A stretch of 64,000 nt of DNA from Candidatus Campbellbacteria bacterium. Its GTDB lineage: Bacteria > Patescibacteriota > Minisyncoccia > Phycocordibacterales > EsbW-18. The stretch's first letter is position 1. Each line of letters opens with the position of its first letter. The notes below the pieces were generated by a model, which ran no database searches, was not told the origin of the DNA, and saw nothing but the letters and a program-made list of their open reading frames with translations. The stretch lies in contig JANLIT010000004.1 in the NCBI GenBank assembly GCA_024653945.1, positions 13,281 to 77,280 of the forward strand, written 5' to 3'. Of this stretch, positions 4,764-36,472 are shown piece after piece. Made by a program: the position numbers and the translations under genes.

Positions 4764-5414
4764 CTACTTCGTATCGTCGCTATCAACAAGTGTCGCGTAG
4801 ACAACAAGTACTCGGTCGTATTCCTGTGTCTCTTGGCTATATGTTCCTGAGCAGGTAATAAGACGCAAACCTGGAAACGTTATATCGCCGTATACTTTTT
4901 CTGTCGGAAAATTGCTTCTATCGTACCGTTCAAGTACTGTTACACGAAATGTTGCTGTTGTTCCGTCTGCGCGATCTACATACACATAGTCGCCTTCTGT
5001 GAGTTGACCAAGAGATAAAAACACACCAGGGCCTTCATACGAGTCAACATGTCCGAGCACAACAGCAGGACCAATTTCACCAGGTGTCGGACCATAGGTG
5101 TACCATCCAACTTCTGTGTATCCTTTTGGAATTTCAATTTCACCATTTTCTTGCAGACCAAGAGGAACAAAATTAGTGTCCACAAATATATCTGGAATAC
5201 GCAAACGCATTGGGTCTGAATCTTCAAGCGGGCGCGCTGGATCAAAAATCGGTCGTGAAGATGTTGCAAGAGTTTCTTGAGAATTTTTTTGTGTCAAATA
5301 TGTGGTGACACCTCCTTGTGATGCTATAAGGATTCCAAAACCAACGACAAGCAACACAACGCCCACAGATATAAGTACTTTTTTTGTGTTCATTTCTGAA
5401 TTAAACAACATCAT
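4764..5414 (-). CDS. sortase family transpeptidase
   Basis: N-terminal TM anchor; His motif VVLGHVDS; catalytic TLxTC motif LRLITCSG; conserved downstream Arg. Confidence 0.75.
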   Translation of the reverse strand: MMLFNSEMNTKKVLISVGVVLLVVGFGILIASQGGVTTYLTQKNSQETLATSSRPIFDPARPLEDSDPMRLRIPDIFVDTNFVPLGLQENGEIEIPKGYTEVGWYTYGPTPGEIGPAVVLGHVDSYEGPGVFLSLGQLTEGDYVYVDRADGTTATFRVTVLERYDRSNFPTEKVYGDITFPGLRLITCSGTYSQETQEYDRVLVVYATLVDSDDTK

Positions 5415-5482
5415 ATTCGCTGTACATGGTAACTCTTTTTGCCCGTTGTGTCAACCCCATCGTGGGTTGGGGCCGTCTTAAT

Positions 5483-5559
5483 GCAAAACCCGCCCAAAAG
5501 GCGGGTTTTGCGCTTTTTTGTTTTCCGAAGCGAAGCTTCCCTTTTGGAAGCTTCGCTTC
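5483..5559 (-). terminator. tandem perfect hairpins downstream of the 605-aa surface-protein gene
   Basis: 12-bp stem GCAAAACCCGCC/GGCGGGTTTTGC and 14-bp stem GAAGCGAAGCTTCC/GGAAGCTTCGCTTC; the second hairpin recurs at 7488-7520. Confidence 0.6.
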
Positions 5560-5572
5560 TTGTTTTAAATCT

Positions 5573-7390
5573 TTAGTAAAGACACATCTTCAATCCTCCA
5601 AATCCTGTAGCAGGAGCACCGAGTGGAAGAATGGATGTTTGCTCACCCAAGACCTCACCAAGAACCTCTCCGCCACCATCTGTGGATGAGTTTCGACGAC
5701 GGAAGCCACTTCCTCCACCGTCGTCGTCATCGTCTCCGTTTGTATCATCACCACCAGTATCTTCGTGAGAATATGAGTTGGTGAATGTACATGTTACATC
5801 CTGATCTTCAGAGAGATACACAGTTACAGACCTCTCTGGTTTATTCGTGTCATACTCAGTTCCATAGTTACAACTAATGAGAGACAGGCTCCAATCAACA
5901 CCTGCATCTACTTCACTGATTGTGTACGTTCCTGAAGAAAGATTCGACAGTACCTCAGGTTCATCATTTGCAGAAAGATCAAACGATGATTCATCCCAGT
6001 AATTAAATGTAAATATGTGGGTTCCATCCGCACCTTCGTTTACCTCCTTGTCAATTGTGATTGAACCTCCGTTCTGATGATTACCAAAGTCCTTGAGCGA
6101 GAAGGTGCCGGGTGTTCCTTCTCCGTCGCCCTGAATCCGATGTCCAACAGTGCCGTTTGCGCAGGTAACCGTTCCGTCCGAAGCGGAAATCGGCGAGGTC
6201 TGTTCCCAACCGCTTTGGACCTCTTCGCAGACAACGTAATTAAGCTCTGGGTCTAAACTGTCGAAGGAGTAGTTGCCGTCGCCATCGGTCGTAGTCGTGT
6301 CCGCGGGCGTCTCTTCGATTACAGTCGTATCTTCGTCGATTGTGTACGGGAACAGGTTGATGGTCCATCCGTCGATGCCGGATTCGTCATCGCTCTGCCG
6401 ATCGCTGTTCACGTCGTTCCACTTCATGCCAGTAACAATGGATCGCGTGGTATTGGTAAAGGTACAAGTCACATCATCGCCACTTTCCACAGTGATTCGT
6501 TCGCCATCTTCAACGGCACTACCAGTGCTATCACCATCGTAAATACATTCTACGTCGGCTAATTGCCAGGCGCTCTGCTGGGTTTCCAGAACATCATATG
6601 TTCCAGGAGCGAGGGAGATGGGACTGGAAGTCGCGGTGTTATCTTCTGGGTCAGCGTCAGGTGTAAGATCAACCCCGTACAAGAACACGGTTGGATCTAT
6701 TCCCGTCACCAAAAATTCAAAGTTGGGGGTCCTTCTAGGGTCAACTGGCTCACCTTGCACGAGACCTTGAAAATCCCCAATCTTCACAATCGTAAGGGTT
6801 GCTGGAGGTATACATGTCTCGCTGTCCACAGTCAGTCTGAATATAACTCCTGCTGGATTACCCGGTCCGTCGGGTTCGTCGTTTGTTGCCTCAATCGTCA
6901 GCGTGTTCGTACCGCTCAAAAGAGAGCTGGCTGGGATAGGGTGTGTTCCAACAATCTGCCAATTGTCACCAGAGCCTACCGCATTGCCGTTGATGGTGAC
7001 AACGTAACTGTTGTCCGCGGTGATATCAAGAGAAGCTCCTGTTGGTGTTCCAACAATCTCAAACGTTCTCGTGAAGGTCAGCGTGCCGGCTGGGTGCGAG
7101 CCTGTGTCATCGGCAGGGACTTTGTCTGCATCCCAGATCCACGTAGCACCTGATGGAAGTGGATCATAGTCATCCCATACGGAGTGTGGAGTAACAGCAA
7201 CCGCATTACCACTACCTACTTGTGTTTCCGAATCACTGACAAGTGTCTGTGTGCTTGGGTCACACGCTGGTGCTACCGTTGCATTTGCGTTCAGTGGACT
7301 AAAAGAAAATACCCCAATAAAAAGAAGTGCGCCCAAAAGCCCCAGCCCAATAGTTCGATGTGTTTTATACGATGTAGTAATGAGAGCCAT
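5573..7390 (-). CDS. secreted adhesin-like surface protein (605 aa) with SdrD-B/Cna-B-like domains; paralog of the 1639-aa gene upstream
   Basis: Signal peptide MALITTSYKT...NANA; SdrD-B/Cna-B-like segments with Thr-Cys-Thr-Phe-Thr-Asn (TCTFTN) motifs and GMKWNDVNSDRQ; C-terminal 45 aa identical to the paralog (ends LPLGAPATGFGGLKMCLY). Confidence 0.7.
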   Translation of the reverse strand: MALITTSYKTHRTIGLGLLGALLFIGVFSFSPLNANATVAPACDPSTQTLVSDSETQVGSGNAVAVTPHSVWDDYDPLPSGATWIWDADKVPADDTGSHPAGTLTFTRTFEIVGTPTGASLDITADNSYVVTINGNAVGSGDNWQIVGTHPIPASSLLSGTNTLTIEATNDEPDGPGNPAGVIFRLTVDSETCIPPATLTIVKIGDFQGLVQGEPVDPRRTPNFEFLVTGIDPTVFLYGVDLTPDADPEDNTATSSPISLAPGTYDVLETQQSAWQLADVECIYDGDSTGSAVEDGERITVESGDDVTCTFTNTTRSIVTGMKWNDVNSDRQSDDESGIDGWTINLFPYTIDEDTTVIEETPADTTTTDGDGNYSFDSLDPELNYVVCEEVQSGWEQTSPISASDGTVTCANGTVGHRIQGDGEGTPGTFSLKDFGNHQNGGSITIDKEVNEGADGTHIFTFNYWDESSFDLSANDEPEVLSNLSSGTYTISEVDAGVDWSLSLISCNYGTEYDTNKPERSVTVYLSEDQDVTCTFTNSYSHEDTGGDDTNGDDDDDGGGSGFRRRNSSTDGGGEVLGEVLGEQTSILPLGAPATGFGGLKMCLY

Positions 7391-7487
7391 ATGTATATGA
7401 TTAGTGACCCACCTTTAGTGGCGAGCTCTGATTAATTAACAACTTTTATTAAAATACTTTTCCCGAGGGTTAAACCTCTGCTTAAAA

Positions 7488-7520
7488 GAAGCGAAGCTTC
7501 CCTTCTGGAAGCTTCGCTTC
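7488..7520 (-). terminator. hairpin downstream of the 1639-aa gene; duplicate of the hairpin at 5527-5559
   Basis: GAAGCGAAGCTTCC-CTTCT-GGAAGCTTCGCTTC perfect stem; a REP-like GAGGGTTAAACCTC lies next to it at 7465-7478. Confidence 0.55.
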
Positions 7521-7534
7521 TTGCTTTTAAATCT

Positions 7535-10500
7535 TTAGTAAAGACACATCTTCAATCCTCCAAAGCCTGTGTTTGGAGCTCCGAGTGGAAGAATGGATGT
7601 TTGTTCACCCAAAACCTCACCAAGAACCTCTCCGCCACCATCTGTGGATGAGTTTCGACGAAAACCTGAGCTTCCGCCACCATTACTTCCACCACCATCG
7701 TCTGTTGTAATTGTAGGATTTTGGTGGTTACCGAAGTCAATACCAACCAGAGAATCTCCTAGAGAAAGTTCCACTTCATGGCCGGCCCCTTCACCCTGAC
7801 AGAGCGTGTTGCCCGACGGGTATGTCTTCTCCCATCCGTCCTGGCCCGTCTCACAGACTATGTATGTGTCTGGAATAAGGTCGGAGAATGAGTAGTTTCC
7901 ATCAGCGTCGGTTTCCGTTGACACGATGAACCCGCCTTCACTATCGTTTGAAGCGTGGATCGCCCAGCCCTGAAGACCTGGTTCACCCGAATCCTTGATA
8001 CCATCAGCGTTAAGGTCATTCCACTTCATACCCGAGATTGAGCCTCTGTCATCATCGTTTGTAAAGACACACGTAATTGTTTCTCCGTTAGACAGAACAA
8101 TGTTGCCTGAATTAATATCGGTGTGTCCTGTGTCATCTGATGTACACGATACACTTTGAAGATTCCATCCAGGTAGAACTGTCTCAGTCACTGAATACGA
8201 GGTGCCAACATTAAGGTCACCACTGTTGTGTTCCTGATTTGCTTCAAGCAAGAAGTTATCAGTACTCCAACTTGGGTCAAATTCAAACGCAGTGTTTGTG
8301 TCGCTTACTTCTGTCACCTCCTTGCGAACGATAATTCGTTCGCCATCATCGTCATCGTCGTCTCCACTTGTTTGAGGGTCATAGGTGTTGGTGAATGTGC
8401 AGGTAACGTCTTCATCCTCACCAAGTGTAATTTCAACATCACCTTCACCTAGGTCGTGAAAAAAATCAACGTCGTCGCCACAATCAACATCCGTGACATA
8501 CCAATCGTCGTCGGTGCTAGTTAATTCAGTAACGATATAGCTTCCAGCTACAAGACCTGAGAATGTTTCTGGATCATTGCTTGCTGTAAGGAGTATGTCG
8601 TCATCGCCCCCATCGAGGTCAAATGAGAATGCTTCATCTTGACTTCCCCCCACAACAACCTTATCAATCGTAATAGAACCTCCGTCCTGGTGATTGCCGA
8701 AATCAAAACCATCTCGGTCATCAGTACCTGTGTCAATAATAAGTTGGTACCCAACACCATCATCACACGCTACAGCATATCCGTCAGAAATCTCTGGTGA
8801 TGTTTGATTCCAACCACTTCCTTGTGCTTCACACACTTTGTAATCGCCATAAGAAATATTGAACTGGTAGTAACCGTCTGAATTTGTTTCCATTGAGCCA
8901 ACGAGGACATCCTCGTCATCATAGATATTGATAGTCCAACCTTCAATTGTTGGTTCGTCGTAATCTTTGTATCCATCATTATCAAGATCGTTGTACTTCA
9001 CACCATTGATGTTTCCTTCACCACCTCCCTGTTGTCCGTCTCTCTCGTTGATAAGGTTGAAGGTGTACACACCCTGATCACTGTCGATATTCCAAACAGT
9101 ACCTCCTCCCGCACCACTGAAGTATGACCAGCCATCCTGCATAACTTCGTCCACAGTGTACTCATCAAGAGCAACATCATTGAAGGTTACACAACCTGTT
9201 TCATCAGTAATACCTGTGTACCCCTTGTAGATATCAACCGAGAGTGTTCCTGAGTTATCATCAAACCATCCTGGGTTCTGCACACCACTATCACCATCAA
9301 AGATGGTAAATGGTACTGGACCAGTAACGCTTGGTGTGAACCCTTGGAGGTATGCATGTGGAGTATTGTATGCACCCCAGTTGCCGAATCCAAGTCCACT
9401 AAAGTCGCCACCAATGTTGAGTTCAAGAATTTCTGTTGGGTACCCTGTGTATCCGTCCATCTGGGTTGCCCAAGAATCTATTGTAGAGTATTCAGAGTCA
9501 ACAAGGTTTGCACCACCTTGGTTACTCCACGTACCGTCTGCAAAAGCAAGGTATGATGTTCCCGCGTCAAGCGATGTTGAGTCAGTACCGTTGATATCCT
9601 CTGAATCAACAATCAAGTCCGATTCTACAGAATCACCCTTGAGGAAGACCGTCCATCCTGAAAGACCCTCGTTCTGGCCCACCTCATACTTACAAATCGT
9701 AACTTCATTGTGGTGTTCTGGTTCTTGTGGTGGCACACAGAAGAGCGCCACGTTGTCGAGGAACGTCCCCTCGGAGTTTGGAGTACCGAGGTCTTTAAAT
9801 GCGATGTCTGTTGAACTGTCTCCGGCTACAAATGAGTGTGCATACGTGTTCCATACCGTGTTTAGATTTGCACTTCCATCAAGACTCACCGCGTTAAGCA
9901 CGTTGCCATCTTGTGAGACTTCAAGATTGTTTTCTGAAGTTCCTGTTCCTGGTCGTGGAGAGAATGCGTATGAAAGTTGATACGTTCTTCCTGGAACCGT
10001 TGCAATAGCTTCTGAAATGATAGTTGATGCCTCTTCACCATTTGGACCACTTGCGTGACCGTTCCAATCAGAATCGAGCTCAGCGTACTGTTCAAGCTCA
10101 TATGGCAACCATCCGTTTACTCCACCGTGAAGTTCTGCATTTGCTGTAGCGGGAGCGCCTACAAATGCACCCGCCCATGCAACCGTCCAATCAAGACCTG
10201 AAAAACCTGAAGCAAAGATGTCCCATCCAGAACCATCGGTAACGTCTGGCAATTCAAATCCTCCGTTTGCAATAAGATTTTGTTCAGGATTACACTCGCG
10301 AGCGTTCACAAGGTTAAATGTTTGTGTGGGTTCATTTACTGTGACCTGACTTCCTGCATTAGTTGCATCATCTGCATCAGTAAGGTTTTCCCAACCCTCC
10401 TGCATAAATTCATCAAGAGTATATGTGCCATAAGGAACCGCTTCAAATGACACACAACCATCTTTATTCGTTGTTCCTGAATAGTCGTGTTCATCAGTAT

Positions 10501-32406: not shown

Positions 32407-32482
32407 GGCACGGTGGCGAAGTGGTAACGCGACGGTCTGCAAAACCGTTATTGCGCGGGTTCAATTCCCGCCCGTGCCTCCA
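32407..32482 (+). tRNA. tRNA-Cys(GCA), CCA encoded
   Basis: Acceptor GGCACGG/CCGTGCC; anticodon loop CTGCAAA; T-arm GCGGGTTCAATTCCCGC; terminal CCA present. Confidence 0.85.
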
Positions 32483-32519: not shown

Positions 32520-32600
32520 GGGCCAGTGGTGGAATGGTATACACGCACGACTTAAGATCGTGTCTCGTATGAGATGTGGGTTCGAGTCCCACCTGGCCCA
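32520..32600 (+). tRNA. tRNA-Leu(TAA), type II; CCA not encoded
   Basis: Acceptor GGGCCAG/CTGGCCC; anticodon loop CTTAAGA; long variable arm; T-arm GTGGGTTCGAGTCCCAC. Confidence 0.8.
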
Positions 32601-32716
32601 CAAAGCGAAGCTTTGTCGTGTGGGACGAGAAAGTCGCAGACCGACGGGCCGAGACGGGGCTGCAAAATTTTTCAGCAGAAAAATATTTGTGGCCGAGTCC
32701 CACCTGGCCCACACCA
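32601..32716 (+). repeat. TLE downstream of tRNA-Leu(TAA)
   Basis: 19-nt copy of the tRNA 3' end gagtcccacctggcccaca at 32695-32713; hairpin AAAGCGAAGCTTT directly after the tRNA; GAGACGGGGCTGC resembles GAGGCGGGGTCGAGA. Confidence 0.5.
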
Positions 32717-32801
32717 TAAGAAACAACAGTGAGAGAAATTTTTAAAAAAGAAAAAACTGATACAATGTATCAATCTAACATCATTTTAAAACACCTAGAA
32801 A

Positions 32802-33662
32802 ATGGAATCTTTCGAAAAAAATAATCAACTTAGTTACGAAAAAAAAACTCTTTTAACTGAGAGGGACAGGGAGGTTGTAAAAGAAAGTCTTGAAACGCTT
32901 TTGCATAAATTTAGAGATATTCCAAATGAAAAACTGCCAACAGTGGTAGCATTCTTAGAAACCTCAACTCGACCCGCAGTTTACGCTGTAAAACCAATTT
33001 TTAAAAAAATTTATAAAGAGGCCCAATTGAATGAACCTAAAATTCAATTTTTGACCACTTTTAGAAGTATCGACAAGACCTCCCTTGGCCACATATTTAC
33101 AGAAAAATTTTTTTATGAACTAGAAAATGGAAAATCGTTTGAAGAAGCCCTAAAAGAAGCCCGAGACAGGTCTCTTTCTGATGGGGCCAGTGAAGAAATG
33201 CTCGAGTCTTATACTGACAAAATAATCGACCACTACCTAACACTAATGGAGAAACTTAAGACCCTACTTGAATCGTCAAATGACGGTCCTGTACTAATTT
33301 TTGACGATTATATTTTTAGTATGGCTTCCTACAACCAAATAGTTGGAGCTTTGAAGGCTTTGGAAGTTCCTCCCGGTAGGGTTACTTTCTTTGCAATGTA
33401 TGGCTGGGCTGGTAAAGAGCCCCTTGAAAAAGCAGCTTCCCCAGATGTTCCTATCTGGGTTGGATCAGATATCAAAAAAGATGAAACTTGGTCTGGTTTT
33501 TCATACAGAAGAAATCCAGAGAAGTCAAAATACCTCGGTGTGGCAAAAAACTTCCCAAATGTTACGGAGAAAATATCGTCTGAGGAAAGGGATTCTGAAA
33601 AAATGAAAGAGCTGAGACAAATATTTAGTAATTTGGGCGAAGAAGTTTCTCGAGAGCCTTAA
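32802..33662 (+). CDS. hypothetical protein with a type I phosphoribosyltransferase-like C-terminal domain (low-GC island gene 1)
   Basis: PRTase-like PRPP-binding motif VLIFDDYIFSMAS, preceded by the PTVVAFLETSTRPAVYAV segment; AT-rich coding sequence. Confidence 0.4.
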   Translation: MESFEKNNQLSYEKKTLLTERDREVVKESLETLLHKFRDIPNEKLPTVVAFLETSTRPAVYAVKPIFKKIYKEAQLNEPKIQFLTTFRSIDKTSLGHIFTEKFFYELENGKSFEEALKEARDRSLSDGASEEMLESYTDKIIDHYLTLMEKLKTLLESSNDGPVLIFDDYIFSMASYNQIVGALKALEVPPGRVTFFAMYGWAGKEPLEKAASPDVPIWVGSDIKKDETWSGFSYRRNPEKSKYLGVAKNFPNVTEKISSEERDSEKMKELRQIFSNLGEEVSREP

Positions 33663-33684
33663 TAGCTGTTTTTAAATATAACGT

Positions 33685-34629
33685 ATGAGAGAATACCCAA
33701 AAAATCCGGAGATAGAATCAATCGATCAAATTCCAACTATAAAATCTGGATCTTTGATTATTGAGAGAGGAAAAACAGAACAACTTGAGAATTTACCCGA
33801 AAACAGTATAGCCCTTGATGGGTATGTTCAAGGTCCATTATTTGATCTTGAACACAATAAGTTTTCATTTGATCACCACGATAATGTAAATAGACAAATT
33901 ACTCGCGCAAGCTGTCAACAAATAGCTGATGCACTACTGCTTGGTTTTGAACCCAAAGAATCAAATATTTATGTTAATGATATTGACGGAGACACCGTTT
34001 TATCCGTGTGGCTACTTCGACACCCTAAAATGGTGAATGATCCGAGGGTCAGAATGTTGGTTGAGTCTGTGGGTGGAGTAGACGCGCACGGTCCAGCATA
34101 TGTACCGCTTGATTCAGAGCTTGCCGAGAAATTTTATAAGGGAGTAATGAAACCTGAAATTGATACACGAAGGAATAGAACATACGCTCAGACTGACTTA
34201 AATACTTTATTAGAAGAATGTCTAAAAAATGTGGACGCCTTGGTGGCAGGAACATTGGTGTATGAAAAACTAGAAGATCACAGGAGTTTTGAAGTTATAA
34301 AAGAAGGCACGGGATGGATTATGGTAGAGTCTAATGACTTCGTTTTTGATCTTGTATATAAAGCTGGCCATACTCGCGCAGTGGCAATGCAAAAACAACC
34401 GGATGGAAGTATTGCGTATACCGTTGCAAAAAAATCAGAACTTGTCAGCAATTTCCCAGTCGGACCAACATCAAAGGACGGGAGTATACTTTACGAGCTA
34501 AACAAACTTGAGGCAGGTTGGGGCGGAGGATCTACTATCGGTGGAGCCCCCCGTAATCCCGACGGATCAAGATCTCATTTATCTCCGGAGGAAGTTTTTG
34601 GTGCTATCGAAGATATACTCAATAAATAG
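33685..34629 (+). CDS. DHH/DHHA1-like phosphoesterase-motif protein (island gene 2; paralog of 35053..36027)
   Basis: FDHHDN, NDIDGDTVLS, and C-terminal GWGGGSTIGGA resembling the DHHA1 GGGH motif; the motif order differs from canonical NrnA/RecJ. Confidence 0.4.
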   Translation: MREYPKNPEIESIDQIPTIKSGSLIIERGKTEQLENLPENSIALDGYVQGPLFDLEHNKFSFDHHDNVNRQITRASCQQIADALLLGFEPKESNIYVNDIDGDTVLSVWLLRHPKMVNDPRVRMLVESVGGVDAHGPAYVPLDSELAEKFYKGVMKPEIDTRRNRTYAQTDLNTLLEECLKNVDALVAGTLVYEKLEDHRSFEVIKEGTGWIMVESNDFVFDLVYKAGHTRAVAMQKQPDGSIAYTVAKKSELVSNFPVGPTSKDGSILYELNKLEAGWGGGSTIGGAPRNPDGSRSHLSPEEVFGAIEDILNK

Positions 34630-34717
34630 AGTGACTATTTTTATTTAATTACTTGTACGAGCGTTTAACTATTTACGGGTATAAACAAGGCACTATGTGC
34701 CGTGGGTAAGAATATTT

Positions 34718-34996
34718 CTATTCTTTTGGTTGTTTTTTATCTTTTTGATCCCGTATTAAATCAGCAATAAAATAAGAGTCGGCAAATTGGCCTCGACTAT
34801 TTTTATAGACAGTATAGCCGTCATAAATTAATCTGCCTGATGGAGTAAATCTGTCTTTTCCATCAAAAAAACCATGTTCACTTACCAGTTCCCAACCAAG
34901 TTCAGATGCACTCTTATCAAATTCCTCCGTATGGTTGTCAACGGATTTTTTTACCTCTTCATGCTCACTACTAGGCATTTCCATTTTATTTTCCAT
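34718..34996 (-). CDS. hypothetical small protein (island gene 3)
   Basis: ORF only; acidic N-terminus. Confidence 0.3.
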   Translation of the reverse strand: MENKMEMPSSEHEEVKKSVDNHTEEFDKSASELGWELVSEHGFFDGKDRFTPSGRLIYDGYTVYKNSRGQFADSYFIADLIRDQKDKKQPKE

Positions 34997-35052
34997 GTTT
35001 ATATAAATTAAATTCGTATAATTAATAACGATTATACTATTAGTCTTATACT

Positions 35053-36027
35053 CTACTTACTTTCAAGTTTTTCTTTAATAATCTTGTCTAGTAAAACCGC
35101 ATACTCTTCTGGATTTAATGTGGTTCCCCCTTTTCCTTCAGGACCCTTGGCTCTTTTAGTACTGCCCGCATTCCACCTGCCACCAAAATCTGGCAAATTA
35201 AGGGTGTTCAGAGTTAGACCTTCAGGTGCTTTCATTCCTAATCGTATCTTTATCTCCCATCTTTCTGGATTATCTTTCATCGGACTTCCGAGAAGTATGA
35301 CGATTGCATCAGGTAAAAGGGCCGGCAACAGTCCTGCGTCAAATTTTTCATTTACAGATGTAAAATACACATCCCCGATACTATTGAATTTTCCGTCTGT
35401 TATTATTTCTTTTGCCCTTTTTCTGTCTTGTAATCGTTTGTTGAGCATTTGTTCCGCTTCTTCATCAACCGGTTCTCCTTTAAGGAGTTTTTCAAGATTG
35501 GTTAGAGAAAAAGAAATGCTTCTTTTATCTTGTAGAGATTGGAGTAGATCAGCAATTTCATTTTGAGCACCTGTGTGGTCAGCCGCAATTGCAGCCTCTC
35601 CAAATTTTTGATCTGGTGACAATATGCCTCTCATAATCGAACTTGAAAGAACACTGTCACAATCCACATGATTGACTACAACATGAACTGGTGGAATCAT
35701 CACACCATTTTTTTCAACAAATTGTATGGCTAGGTTAGTGCTAGAAATTTGTCTTGCCATTAAAGCTCCTGGCGCATGATGATCTATGTTTGTTACATCC
35801 TCCTGTCTATACCCGGATTCTAACTCCTCTCCTTTTTCAATATCTTCTACATAAAAATCACAAACTACGATAGGATCATCTGGTATAATCTCTCGTAATT
35901 CTGATATTGTAATTTTTGATCTTTCGGGAAAAAGTTCGATTGGTAATTTTTCTAACTTGTCAGTAAGTGGTTCTGGGTCAGAAATAGTATATCCTTGCTC
36001 TACAAAATTTTCTGGTTGTTTTTCCAT
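35053..36027 (-). CDS. DHH/DHHA1-like phosphoesterase-motif protein (island gene 4; divergent paralog of 33685..34629)
   Basis: NIDHHAPG, VNHVDCDSVLSS, GGRWNAGSTKRAKG...LNPEE, collinear with the motifs of the paralog. Confidence 0.4.
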   Translation of the reverse strand: MEKQPENFVEQGYTISDPEPLTDKLEKLPIELFPERSKITISELREIIPDDPIVVCDFYVEDIEKGEELESGYRQEDVTNIDHHAPGALMARQISSTNLAIQFVEKNGVMIPPVHVVVNHVDCDSVLSSSIMRGILSPDQKFGEAAIAADHTGAQNEIADLLQSLQDKRSISFSLTNLEKLLKGEPVDEEAEQMLNKRLQDRKRAKEIITDGKFNSIGDVYFTSVNEKFDAGLLPALLPDAIVILLGSPMKDNPERWEIKIRLGMKAPEGLTLNTLNLPDFGGRWNAGSTKRAKGPEGKGGTTLNPEEYAVLLDKIIKEKLESK

Positions 36028-36138
36028 ATGCTCTAATACTAAGCATATTATCTACCTTACACAAGTGCGTCTTAAATCGTGTGATTAAGTCCCACACCTA
36101 GAATAATTCTTTTTTATTGCTACAATAACGCTATTCCA

Positions 36139-36211
36139 CCACCCATAGCTCAGCTGGTAGAGCAGCTCCCTCTTAAGGAGACGGTCGTAGGTCCGATTCC
36201 TACTGGGTGGA
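36139..36211 (+). tRNA. tRNA-Lys(CTT); CCA not encoded
   Basis: Acceptor CCACCCA/TGGGTGG; anticodon loop CTCTTAA; T-arm GTAGGTCCGATTCCTAC. Confidence 0.8.
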
Positions 36212-36387
36212 CTTTCGGTAGAAAGTCCTGCAAACTAGAGCGCACGGCGGTGCGCACCGCACCAGCAAGCCGTACCTGGTTCGCGCGAAGTGCGATACGG
36301 CTTACTGGGTGGACTACGAGTACTTAGAATTTTACAAGTGTAGCGAAGTAAAATACTTAGTAACTTGTGACGACTTTCACACATATT
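36212..36387 (+). repeat. TLE downstream of tRNA-Lys, extending to the start of tRNA-Leu(TAG)
   Basis: 13-nt copy of the tRNA-Lys 3' end tactgggtggact at 36304-36316; hairpin GCGCAC-GGCG-GTGCGC; core GAGTACTTAGAATTTT...AATACTTAGTAACTTGTGACGA matches the Trp, Gly and Glu copies. Confidence 0.55.
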
Positions 36388-36472
36388 GGGCGAGTGGCGA
36401 AATTGGTAGACGCGCTAGCCTTAGGAGCTAGTGTCGCAAGACTTGGAGGTTCGAGTCCTCTCTCGCCCACCA
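36388..36472 (+). tRNA. tRNA-Leu(TAG), type II, CCA encoded
   Basis: Acceptor GGGCGAG/CTCGCCC; anticodon loop CTTAGGA; long variable arm; T-arm GGAGGTTCGAGTCCTCT; terminal CCA present. Confidence 0.85.

Follow-up and report, generated by a model that had tools for sequence, protein, structure and literature searches.

A low-GC insertion in a tRNA cluster of a Candidatus Campbellbacteria bacterium with independent accessory cargo, including two putative DHH/DHHA1-like phosphoesterases of rearranged motif order

Positions 32716–36098 of the DNA analysed here form, in our assessment with fair probability, a horizontally acquired insertion whose cargo consists of independent accessory genes, including gene B as a likely signal phosphodiesterase, and not a functional operon. 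The window, i.e. the whole stretch analysed, covers 64,000 nt of contig JANLIT010000004.1 of Candidatus Campbellbacteria bacterium (GCA_024653945.1; positions 13,281–77,280, forward strand). Two of the island genes, B and D, stand for two families without Pfam assignment, hitherto unannotated, with a rearranged order of the active-site motifs. The features discussed below are collected in Table 1.

Table 1. Features of the tRNA cluster and of the inserted segment, in window coordinates
Feature	Position	Strand	Remarks
tRNA-Cys	32407-32482		Upstream flank of the island
tRNA-Leu(taa)	32520..32601	+	Upstream anchor of the insertion site; ARAGORN; Rfam tRNA 61.4 bits
tRNA-like element (TLE)	32602..32715	+	Insertion target; ~90-nt spacer, then copy of the tRNA-Leu 3′ end (GAGTCCCACCTGGCCCACA) + CC
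Left copy of 8-bp junction repeat CCCACACC	32708..32715	+	L006 12116-12123 aligns here
Inserted DNA	32716..36090	.	3375 bp unique, 37% GC; synteny with L006, L007, L011 and L009, plus composition
Gene A (NUW02_03245)	32802..33662	+	286 aa; annotated hypothetical; divergent PRTase-like
Gene B (NUW02_03250)	33685..34629	+	314 aa; putative non-canonical DHH/DHHA1-like phosphoesterase
Gene C	34655..34996	-	Truncated copy of a 199-aa gene: 92-aa ORF (34718-34996) and remnant beyond the stop codon
Gene D (NUW02_03260)	35053..36027	-	324 aa; second putative non-canonical DHH/DHHA1-like phosphoesterase
Right junction	36079..36098	+	Degenerate copy resembling the tRNA-Leu T arm (GTGTGATTAAGTCCCAC), with the right CCCACACC copy at its end
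tRNA-Lys(ctt)	36139..36212	+	Downstream anchor; in relatives directly 3′ of tRNA-Leu(taa) and its TLE
tRNA-Leu(tag)	36388-36472		Downstream flank of the island

The segment is an insertion, since tRNA-Cys, tRNA-Leu(taa), tRNA-Lys and tRNA-Leu(tag) are contiguous in all four relatives compared (L006, L007, L011 and L009; IF-2 identity 51–82%), with no gene separating Leu(taa) from Lys. The alignment with L006 runs at 98% identity up to 32715 and resumes at 36091, and 8 bp are common to both junctions: the same L006 stretch aligns to the left copy of the repeat and to the right one at 36091–36098, which is an exact 8-bp repeat of the former. With 37.3% GC as compared with 44.4% for the window (z = −4.3 against 1078 same-size windows elsewhere), the segment is also the lowest-GC 3.4-kb segment of the window, and GC3 is 0.24–0.31 for all four island genes, as against 0.38 ± 0.08. 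The first-pass annotation had already described a horizontally acquired, AT-rich four-gene island lying between tRNA-Cys/Leu and tRNA-Lys/Leu, each pair with a TLE. Composition and synteny bear this description out, the four ORFs and the motifs quoted for them are present in the sequence, and so are the tRNAs and both 3′-end copies, the second TLE being an exact copy, 13 nt long, of the 3′ end of tRNA-Lys (36303–36315). That the segment is instead ancestral and was lost independently in the relatives appears extremely improbable. Such a history would fit an island devoid of an integrase and a junction repeat of merely 8 bp, but the segment is missing from all four genomes over the whole range of IF-2 identity, its GC content lies 7 points under that of the flanks, the nearest relative of every gene sits elsewhere, in other organisms, and L006 is nearly identical right up to both junctions.

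The border repeats, derived from a tRNA 3′ end, are present at both ends of the island but are short and imperfect. On the left, the repeat within the TLE (32685–32713) shares 86% identity with the tRNA-Leu 3′ end (32574–32602). This TLE is 98% conserved in L006, found in L007 and missing from L011; a stable fold is predicted for it (z = −3.97), and it matches no Rfam family. On the right, 13 of 17 bases (76%) at 36079–36095 agree with the tRNA-Leu T arm. The local alignment score, 20, compares with a background of 12.3 ± 3.2 and is not significant alone; the meaning of this copy derives from synteny and not from stand-alone similarity. The weak tRNA-Leu copy earlier placed at 36094–36111 is thus real and located exactly at the right junction, although its coordinates were offset. 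As to the mechanism, we infer that low-GC DNA from a foreign source entered by recombination at the 3′ end of a tRNA-Leu-like element within the conserved tRNA-Cys/Leu/Lys/Leu cluster; this would have left the direct repeat of 8 bp and, at the far end, a decayed T-arm-like copy. None of the four island ORFs matched an integrase or transposase family in searches of the ORFs, and the island does not encode the recombinase. Alternatively, the 8-bp repeat could reflect microhomology instead of site-specific recombination.

The cargo is made up of independent accessory genes. Of the 102 loci that contain a B-family gene, the window alone has a relative of A or D within the flanks (0/101 others), and D-family loci contain neither A nor B. 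The nearest DNA relatives of A, of B with C, and of D lie in three unrelated contexts: that of A (76%, L001) follows an unrelated 519-aa gene, those of B and C (89% and 74%, L029–31) form an islet of 41% GC within a contig of 49.5% GC, and that of D (73%) is found in L005. This lack of co-occurrence, together with the unrelated contexts of the nearest relatives, argues that the four genes are no module. Gene C, moreover, is a gene remnant: it is 59% identical over 90 aa to a 199-aa protein of L029, where the full-length counterpart is convergent to B in another organism, and tblastn similarity to that protein continues past the stop codon of gene C, to residue 112.

An acquired nucleotide-salvage or nanoRNase module, as the first-pass annotation had proposed, would have B and D degrade short RNA to NMPs and A recycle the bases, to the benefit of a CPR cell with reduced biosynthesis. 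The host is indeed a CPR bacterium, A and B are co-directional with a gap of 22 nt, and the three intact proteins all have nucleotide-related folds. Nevertheless, we hold such a module to be very unlikely, and it is already largely refuted by the absence of co-occurrence (102 B-family loci, 5 D-family contexts and 2 A-family contexts); besides, the sole close relative of A pairs with a different gene, C is truncated and D lies on the opposite strand. The properties of gene A also speak against salvage, since its protein has no Pfam match of its own and its PRPP loop does not retain the Gly and Thr of canonical PRTases.

Judged from its sequence, gene A is a divergent PRTase-like protein, in line with the earlier reading of a PRPP-binding-like motif. 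It has one close homologue and 116 distant ones. Of 32 distant family members, four match Pfam Pribosyltran (best E 2.5e-6) and four match PRTase-CE, and the family profile matches PRTases in the PDB (PurR, OPRT, HGPRT) at the PRPP loop. In the PRPP-motif region of gene A, VLIFDDYIFSMAS, the hydrophobic strand and the DD pair are kept, with Met in place of Gly and Ser in place of Thr; the canonical motif (strand, two acidic residues, x-x-T/S-G-x-T) is thus not reproduced. The family consensus is ILvIDDYxxxGxT, with a variable Gly position. A Foldseek search with the AF2 model (pLDDT 89.4) returned no match at E ≤ 0.001; the best-probability matches were OPRT, HGPRT and UPRT, and PRTases reached probabilities of 0.75–0.87 and TM-scores of 0.3–0.46.

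Genes B and D are predicted to encode two-domain, metal-dependent phosphoesterases of the DHH/DHHA1 superfamily. A database of 5.8 billion non-redundant sequences yields, at E ≤ 0.001, 707 relatives for the B family, none of them with a Pfam domain, and 530 for the D family, both counted as cluster representatives; they are sparsely and patchily scattered over CPR, DPANN, Chlorobi, Chloroflexi and Gemmatimonadota. Gene B has no Pfam DHH or DHHA1 match. Gene D reaches 21.4 bits against Pfam DHH (E 3.3e-4), under the cut-off of 28.1, and does not match DHHA1; this match aligns D57 and DHH82–84 to profile positions 32–81, and 20 of 33 D-family members likewise match Pfam DHH under threshold. Invariant residues are D45, D63-H64-H65, N98-D99-x-D101-x-D103, D133, G278-W-G-G281 and R290 in B, and D57, D82-H83-H84, H120-x-D122-x-D124, D150-H151, R284, N286 and R292 in D. 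Equivalents of all four DHH motifs are accordingly invariant in both families (B/D: II, D45/D57; III, DHH 63–65/82–84; I, NDxDxD 98–103/HxDxD 120–124; IV, D133xH/D150H), but in the order II-III-I-IV instead of the canonical I-II-III-IV. The strand bearing DxD would be relocated to a position after the DHH motif; the earlier description likewise had DHH ahead of DxD. The motif at the GGGH position is glycine-rich and without His in both (GWGGGSTIGGAPR in B, where Ser replaces His; GGRWNAGSxKR in D), so that GGGH of the second domain appears altered to GGGS in B and to NAGS in D. As all predicted metal ligands are intact, B and D are probably active, presumably on small phosphodiester substrates.

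The fold of B appears to belong to the DHH/DHHA1 class according to its AF2 model (pLDDT 91.7). The 24 best Foldseek matches in the PDB are all DHH/DHHA1 proteins, among them PAP phosphatase 8a8k (E 3.6e-4, probability 0.99), TM1595 pApA phosphodiesterase, DhhP, GdpP, Rv2837c, the archaeal GAN/RecJ-type 5ghr, RecJ and NrN (E 0.024); a BFVD fold search likewise retrieved DHH/DHHA1 proteins. TM-scores to solved DHH enzymes are low (0.30–0.36). The C-terminal domain superposes on the tRNA-binding C-Ala/DHHA1 domain 6nlq with an rmsd of 3.7 over 93 columns. BLASTP detects no similarity between B and D, which had been called divergent paralogs. Profile comparison with hhalign gives a full-length collinear alignment (E = 1.3e-4 with 33 sequences each, 1.9e-3 with ~110 each), and reciprocal HMM searches in a database of 120 sequences give E ~1e-5 to 1e-4. 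The two are probably no more than distantly homologous, and ‘paralogs’ is too strong a word.

We read B as a putative nucleotide-signal or short-RNA phosphodiesterase. Its family recurs in type III CRISPR loci (L018, L055, L063, L064, L069, L074 and L075), an association obtained with an array finder and a panel of our own making and given here with no formal background rate. In L055, B is followed by an NE0113-like CARF protein and Cmr1 (PDB 9z7q, 8e-16); in L018, RT-Cas1, a mini-array, Cas_NE0113 and Card1 precede an operon with B as the last gene; in L063, L069, L074 and L075, CRISPR arrays lie 0.2–7.5 kb from B. Furthermore, in L003 and L048 B is followed by a Csx3-AAA-like ATPase (PADLOC 4.9e-47) and Csx3 (3.9e-20). 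Because B-family genes lie in type III CRISPR loci, beside Csx3 ring-nuclease genes and beside a metallophosphoesterase in giant phages, B may have a role in signal degradation; its target would most likely be a nucleotide second messenger, or linear products thereof, such as cyclic oligoadenylate-type signals or short oligoadenylates. These contexts in CRISPR loci, next to Csx3 and in giant phages lend real support, for the B family, to the earlier idea of a nucleotide-signal-degrading accessory system, but nothing alike adjoins B in the window, where neither a CRISPR array nor a cas or Csx3 gene was seen, so that its role there may differ from that in CRISPR loci. No recurrent type III CRISPR location was seen for the D family.

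It is tempting to propose, as a possibility held tentatively, that the B family, and perhaps D, constitutes an undescribed class of nucleotide-signal phosphodiesterases with a rearranged DHH core, used as a CRISPR off-switch, captured by phages and spread as a cassette. If so, B would be the off-switch of type III (RT-Cas1/Cmr) loci, beside CARF proteins (NE0113, Card1) and Csx3; giant phages would have captured B and a 2′,3′-phosphoesterase as an anti-signalling pair; and B would spread among CPR bacteria as a low-GC cassette that stands alone, and in these bacteria it may guard against immunity or toxicity based on cOA, possibly a host's.

Most B-family loci, however, are found in ordinary contexts (UvrABC, SHMT, YdjM/SelR, spermine synthase), and B could for this reason be a general short-RNA or pAp phosphoesterase recruited now and then. 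A stricter version, that B and D are ordinary housekeeping nanoRNase/pAp-phosphatase analogues (NrnA/Orn equivalents) carried on mobile DNA, with incidental CRISPR and phage contexts, seems doubtful to us. It would agree with the many housekeeping contexts of B and D, with PAP phosphatase, the NrnA-type TM1595 and Rv2837c as closest solved structures of B, with the size and two-domain layout that both share with NrnA, and with a gene GC that matches the host in several genomes (L019, 74% versus 73%; L018; L026; L028). It would be harder to reconcile with so sparse and patchy a distribution, with low-GC islets as the nearest relatives of the window copies, with the lack of B at the same site in four relatives, with its recurrence in CRISPR loci and phages, or with the position of D in L023–25 between a type I R-M system on one side and HD_4 and PDC-S27 on the other.

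In phages, B is adjacent to a PPP-type metallophosphoesterase in 16 phage-clade groups, in varying orientation, and in one giant-phage clade this gene is always beside B. Among solved structures, 4j6o is the closest to this phosphoesterase in sequence (8.4e-7); the entry was deposited as ‘Metallophosphoesterase’, and we take it to be the phosphatase domain of Pnkp, an RNA-repair enzyme of bacteria. The giant-phage B also has RtcB, Rnl1, RlaP, a CCA-adding enzyme and tmRNA within a few kb, and the first four point to RNA repair instead of signalling. B might accordingly be an end-processing enzyme that, jointly with a 2′,3′-phosphoesterase, heals or trims the ends of damaged RNA or tRNA upstream of RNA ligases; the resemblance of its C-terminal domain to C-Ala/DHHA1 and the occurrence of D-family genes near Dus and a CCA-adding enzyme would be consistent with this role. 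We consider it unlikely, as none of the RNA ligases adjoins B, RNA-repair genes are absent from the cellular B loci, and the phage loci, coming from two related clades with conserved synteny, amount to few independent observations.

Compared with known systems, the segment resembles tRNA-gene-targeted genomic islands, integrative elements whose attL/attR stem from a tRNA 3′ end, in its tRNA-type 3′ end target, a direct repeat at both ends, accessory cargo, deviant composition and absence from related genomes. It differs from them in having no integrase, an exact repeat of 8 bp and a size of 3.4 kb, and in being targeted to a TLE that lies downstream of the tRNA instead of to the tRNA. Gene A shares with type I phosphoribosyltransferases (OPRT, HGPRT, UPRT, the PurR PRT domain) a strand and acidic pair (VLIFDDY) at the PRPP-loop position, a core predicted to be alpha/beta and an SARP loop that follows the first strand, and some members of its family match Pribosyltran and PF24390 PRTase-CE; unlike these enzymes (PF00156), it has SMAS in place of the PRPP-loop Gly and Thr, a helical insertion of ~65 residues (94–158), and neither a Pfam match nor a significant fold match. 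The best fold matches of B are NrnA-type DHH/DHHA1 phosphoesterases (8a8k, TM1595, Mycobacterium tuberculosis Rv2837c/CnpB, Borrelia DhhP and the GdpP catalytic domain), which like B measure ~310 aa; B appears to share with them a two-domain layout, with a metal site rich in Asp and His in the alpha/beta domain at the N-terminus and a glycine-rich loop of the C-terminal domain at the GGGH position. B and D depart from these enzymes in motif order, in the GGGS and NAGS replacements and in their Pfam results (none for B, sub-threshold DHH for D), and B also in its low TM-scores and in an N-terminal domain predicted with fewer strands and more helices.

Enzymes that degrade CRISPR signals are known within this superfamily: a DHH-DHHA1 nuclease associated with the membrane breaks down cA4 (cited in PMC7824862), and NrN, a DHH-family phosphodiesterase of type III-B CRISPR loci, degrades SAM-AMP (PMC10600005; PDB 9lqc). 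B is not related to NrN in sequence, and PADLOC gave no match for it. No CorA gene was found in its vicinity; the partners of B are NE0113-type CARF proteins, Card1 and Csx3. Like NrN, a signal off-switch that is also among the fold matches of B, the B family would nonetheless represent an enzyme of the DHH superfamily with genes located within type III CRISPR loci, adjoining Cmr1, CARF proteins and arrays.

The four ORFs A to D (Table) lie downstream of the genes for IF-2 and RbfA, between tRNA-Cys/tRNA-Leu(taa) on one side and tRNA-Lys(ctt)/tRNA-Leu(tag) on the other. The segment 32716-36098 has a GC content of 37.3%, as compared with 44.4% for the window (z = -4.3 relative to same-size windows elsewhere, none of which reaches so low a value), and GC3 is low in all four genes, which bears out the low-GC island noticed in the first-pass annotation. 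Copies of tRNA 3' ends, the TLEs that it had listed, are likewise present downstream of tRNA-Leu and tRNA-Lys, and the protein motifs that it quoted were found in the translated ORFs. The genes correspond to NUW02_03245 to 03260, all annotated as encoding hypothetical proteins; protein B has 100% identity with NUW02_03250, which lies on a 148-kb contig of a metagenome-assembled Candidatus Campbellbacteria genome (CPR/Patescibacteria). Comparison of the four proteins with NCBIfam, PADLOC and PHROGs gave no useful match, a search for intergenic repeats, integron-like or of another kind, returned only short ones at chance level, and promoter and terminator scans of the island stayed at background. 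Elsewhere in the window, a 1-kb patch of 60.5% GC (window, 44%) holds a 397-aa ORF that matches, just below threshold, the C-terminal domain of IS110/IS116/IS902 transposases (E 7.9e-4, 20.2 versus 21.3 bits); the patch is probably a further mobile element of foreign origin. Tandem repeats that are long and imperfect (periods 276-315 nt, about three copies, 75-81% matches) occur at 56903-58540, probably within the gene for a large repetitive protein.

Coordinates of the island genes, tRNA-like elements (TLEs) and compared loci (L numbers denote other contigs or loci)
Feature	Sequence	Position	Strand	Remark
Gene A	window	32802-33662	+	286 aa
Gene B	window	33685-34629	+	314 aa
Gene C	window	34718-34996	-	92 aa
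Gene D	window	35053-36027	-	324 aa
TLE	window	32602-32715
TLE	window	36213-36317
TLE	L006	12116-12229
TLE	L007	11919-12055
TLE	L007	12148-12281
TLE	L011	11926-11965
TLE	L011	12258-12430
Inverted tRNA block	L006	11893-12311
DNA relative of A	window	32772-33651		76% identity; locus where A follows an unrelated 519-aa gene
DNA similarity upstream of A	window	32772-32801		3' end of the 519-aa gene
Close relative of A	L001	6442-8870
DNA relatives of B and C	window	33667-34640, 34735-35028		89%, 74% identity; pair forms an islet of 41% GC, contig 49.5% GC
DNA relative of D				73% identity; locus between trigger factor and ClpP genes
B-family CRISPR locus	L003	6001-9599
B-family CRISPR locus	L048	9950-13569
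B-family CRISPR locus	L055	339-5314
B-family CRISPR locus	L018	1-7894
B-family CRISPR locus	L063	46-11633
B-family CRISPR locus	L069	27-2939
B-family CRISPR locus	L074	255-10972
B-family CRISPR locus	L075	1714-4950
Phage contigs with B and metallophosphoesterase	L012-L014, L072, L076, L080-L082, L105-L107, L112	~8000-10000 of each
D in defence island	L023 (also L024, L025)	5398-10041
GC-rich patch with 397-aa ORF	window	62028-63251	-
Tandem repeats	window	56903-58540

Four related genomes (L006, L007, L011 and L009) were recovered by an IF-2 search, with IF-2 identities of 82, 65, 64 and 51%. In all of them tRNA-Cys, tRNA-Leu(taa) and tRNA-Lys(ctt) are close together, the Leu(taa)-Lys interval is gene-free and the island is missing, the answer to a presence/absence check proposed in the first-pass annotation. 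All four tRNA genes, including Leu(tag), fall within about 680 nt in L006, L007 and L011; in L009, Leu(tag) is 1.3 kb further on. Identity between the window and its closest relative, L006, is 98% as far as position 32715 and resumes at that level from 36091; eight L006 bases, CCCACACC, align to both ends of the island. Accordingly, the inserted DNA measures 3375 bp and is bounded by an exact 8-bp direct repeat. The insertion point is the 3' end of a TLE of about 115 nt whose terminal part duplicates the tRNA-Leu 3' end; the tRNA itself was not hit. Just inside the right end of the island, 13 of 17 bases match the tRNA-Leu T arm. A longer decayed tRNA-Leu copy, from the anticodon arm onward, was also considered at this end, but its local alignment score was not above background, and our claim is thus limited to the 8-bp repeat and the T-arm-like 17-mer. 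The landing-site TLE is older than the insertion, being present in both L006 and L007; it is absent from L011, where the same CTAGAA directly follows the tRNA. Family searches of the island ORFs revealed no integrase or transposase. The block of tRNA-Leu(taa), TLE, tRNA-Lys and tRNA-Leu(tag) runs the other way round in L006 with respect to IF-2/RbfA/tRNA-Cys; this inversion implies that the tRNA cluster is recombination-prone in more than one lineage.

TLEs in this lineage extend about 40-170 nt 3' of tRNA genes and end in a copy of the preceding tRNA 3' end, which after tRNA-Lys is an exact 13-mer. Both window elements fold more stably than shuffled sequence (z = -4.0 after tRNA-Leu and -3.3 after tRNA-Lys), and the elements have no match in Rfam. 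Their presence differs among relatives, and motifs such as TTTTTCAGCAGAAAAATA recur among their spacers. Their features suggest small elements, mobile or processed, that mimic tRNA 3' ends. In the best-supported account, one such element was the landing site for foreign low-GC DNA, and for CPR biology the locus shows that TLEs 3' of tRNA genes serve this role.

The cargo itself is, in the same account, a set of independent accessory genes. HMM searches of 102 B-bearing loci placed D or A near a B-family gene only in the window, and A/B/D partners were missing from five D-family and two A-family contexts. This lack of co-occurrence, together with the separate DNA relatives of the genes, indicates that the island is an assembly of separately mobile genes, and the suggestion that it forms a nucleotide-salvage module found no support. 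As a four-gene 'system' the island is ordinary, a mosaic of unrelated cargo. Two of the genes, B and C, move as a pair: C corresponds to the N-terminal 92 residues of a 199-aa protein whose full gene, in another organism (L029-31, L037), is convergent to a 94%-identical B copy. Since similarity runs on past the stop codon of C, C is a remnant, and no relatives were found beyond this 199-aa gene.

A has one close relative (67% identity), to which an exhaustive profile search added 116 distant ones. The family shares the motifs L-P-x-x-I-x-F-P-E-T-S-A-R-P-L and I-L-x-I-D-D-Y-x-x-x-G-x-T, and among 32 members four match Pfam Pribosyltran (best E 2.5e-6) and four PRTase-CE, for which our literature search found no paper. 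Against the PDB, the family profile matched PurR, OPRT, PRPP synthetase and HGPRT at the PRPP loop (E 0.005-0.06). The model of A (pLDDT 89.4) combines a strand-helix core like that of PRTases with a helical insertion of 65 residues; its fold search returned no significant match, PRTases carrying the highest probabilities. The loop of A reads SMAS, without the usual Gly and Thr, and A is PRTase-like rather than a demonstrable PRTase. Its only close relative lies directly 3' of a 519-aa protein that has no Pfam match and includes the sequence VGRALGEELGV, which resembles a Nudix box. The DNA of the window starts to resemble that locus 30 nt upstream of A, which suggests that A was torn from a pairing with the 519-aa gene.

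B and D belong to families of 707 and 530 relatives (cluster representatives, E <= 0.001), thinly spread over CPR bacteria, DPANN archaea, Chlorobi, Chloroflexi, Gemmatimonadota and Acidobacteriota. The relatives are annotated as hypothetical; no Pfam domain is recorded and no informative name given for any of them, and neither family has a Pfam, NCBIfam, PADLOC or PHROG model. Conserved residues are D45, D63-H64-H65, N98-D99-x-D101-x-D103, D133-x-H135 and G-W-G-G-G-S...R290 in B, and D57, D82-H83-H84, H120-x-D122-x-D124, D150-H151 and G-R-W-N-A-G-S...R292 in D. A below-threshold match to Pfam DHH in 20 of 33 D-family members maps the first Asp and the DHH onto the motif II-III part of the profile. 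The shared segment H/N-x-D-x-D-(S/T)-V-L-S resembles canonical DHH motif I (H-x-x-x-D-x-D-x-x-x-S) and is located after the DHH, giving the order II-III-I-IV; the DHH-before-DxD order read by the first-pass annotation is thus correct in both families. Its term 'paralogs' is too strong: B and D, probably distant homologues, show full-length collinear but weak profile similarity (hhalign E 1.3e-4 or 1.9e-3; reciprocal HMM matches), whereas BLASTP finds none. Sequence and profile searches of B and D against the PDB gave chance matches only. The AlphaFold model of B (pLDDT 91.7, pTM 0.87) has DHH/DHHA1 proteins as all 24 of its best PDB matches, among them PAP phosphatase, TM1595, DhhP, GdpP, Rv2837c, 5ghr (archaeal GAN/RecJ-type), RecJ and NrN, followed by the DHHA1-like C-Ala domain of AlaRS; viral predicted structures gave the same outcome. 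The TM-scores are low (0.30-0.36), as expected if chain order differs. Both families can be placed in the DHH/DHHA1 superfamily, with the DxD-bearing strand unusually relocated, a placement that supplies a predicted set of catalytic residues. Window B and D retain every invariant residue of their own families and hence look functional; they are probably active metal-dependent phosphodiesterases of rearranged DHH/DHHA1 type. Housekeeping nanoRNase activity remains as a rival assignment for both proteins.

Genomic context bears on the substrate of B. The B gene of L055 overlaps an NE0113-like CARF gene at the start of the latter, after which come Cmr1 (PDB 9z7q, 8e-16; 4l6u, 1.3e-6) and a large protein with a homologue in L064; proteins of the NE0113 CARF family have no effector domain (PMC4012209). 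L018 has B as the last gene of an operon of three, which adjoins Card1, Cas_NE0113, a mini-array and RT-Cas1. In the CPR genomes represented by L003/L004 and L040/L048, where B is 75-76% identical to the window protein, an ATPase 9 nt after B matches PADLOC Csx3-AAA (4.9e-47) and a 99-aa Csx3 is nearby (3.9e-20). CRISPR arrays lie 0.2-7.5 kb from B in L063, L069, L074 and L075. Neighbours of B in L003, L063 and L069 had no sequence or profile match in the PDB. CRISPR linkage thus concerns at least 7 of 76 identity groups, only 42 of which have at least 5 kb of flank. Csx3 acts as a ring nuclease, and SAM-AMP, a signal of type III systems, is broken down by the DHH enzyme NrN (PMC10600005, PMC11229360); there is as yet no systematic survey of the regulators and ring nucleases of type III loci (PMC11229360). 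Found in or beside type III/RT-Cas1 loci and lacking a PADLOC model, the B family is a candidate for a CRISPR ancillary gene not yet described. Within the window, B has no CRISPR or signalling gene nearby, and its role in the Campbellbacteria host may differ.

In one clade of phage-like contigs of 131-409 kb (16 groups), B always stands beside a PPP-type metallophosphoesterase (closest solved sequence relative, 4j6o) despite orientation changes, and also next to a conserved gene block that includes HU-like, Dps-like and ClpP genes; GenBank phages yielded a single B match, in an unannotated 485-kb megaphage. That giant phages turn DHH phosphodiesterases against nucleotide signals has been proposed before (PMC7824862). 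Some giant-phage contigs carry RtcB, Rnl1, RlaP, a CCA-adding enzyme and tmRNA within a few kb of B, and RNA-end repair remains as a rival function. The weight of context favours a B that would degrade nucleotide signals or their linear products: its occurrence in type III loci and next to Csx3, with the fixed phage pairing, suggests a further enzyme that switches off or evades nucleotide-based immune signalling.

The D family was not found in viral contigs or GenBank phages, and its contexts are varied: D can adjoin a tyrosine recombinase, an Exo_endo_phos protein and a CCA-adding enzyme, or else Dus. In one defence-island setting (HsdM, D, HD_4 hydrolase, PADLOC PDC-S27), D lies between a type I restriction methylase and, 4 nt downstream, a small gene of the HD_4 (alarmone-hydrolase) type, which is followed by an ATPase matching the candidate defence family PDC-S27. 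D and HD_4 are a possible nucleotide-degrading pair.

Our literature search found no paper on a permuted DHH family, on the rearranged-motif families or on their CRISPR/giant-phage link. Whereas tRNA-adjacent islands and DHH phosphoesterases are of kinds already known, the rearranged motif order in two unmodelled families is new, as is the candidate link of the B family to type III CRISPR loci and giant phages.
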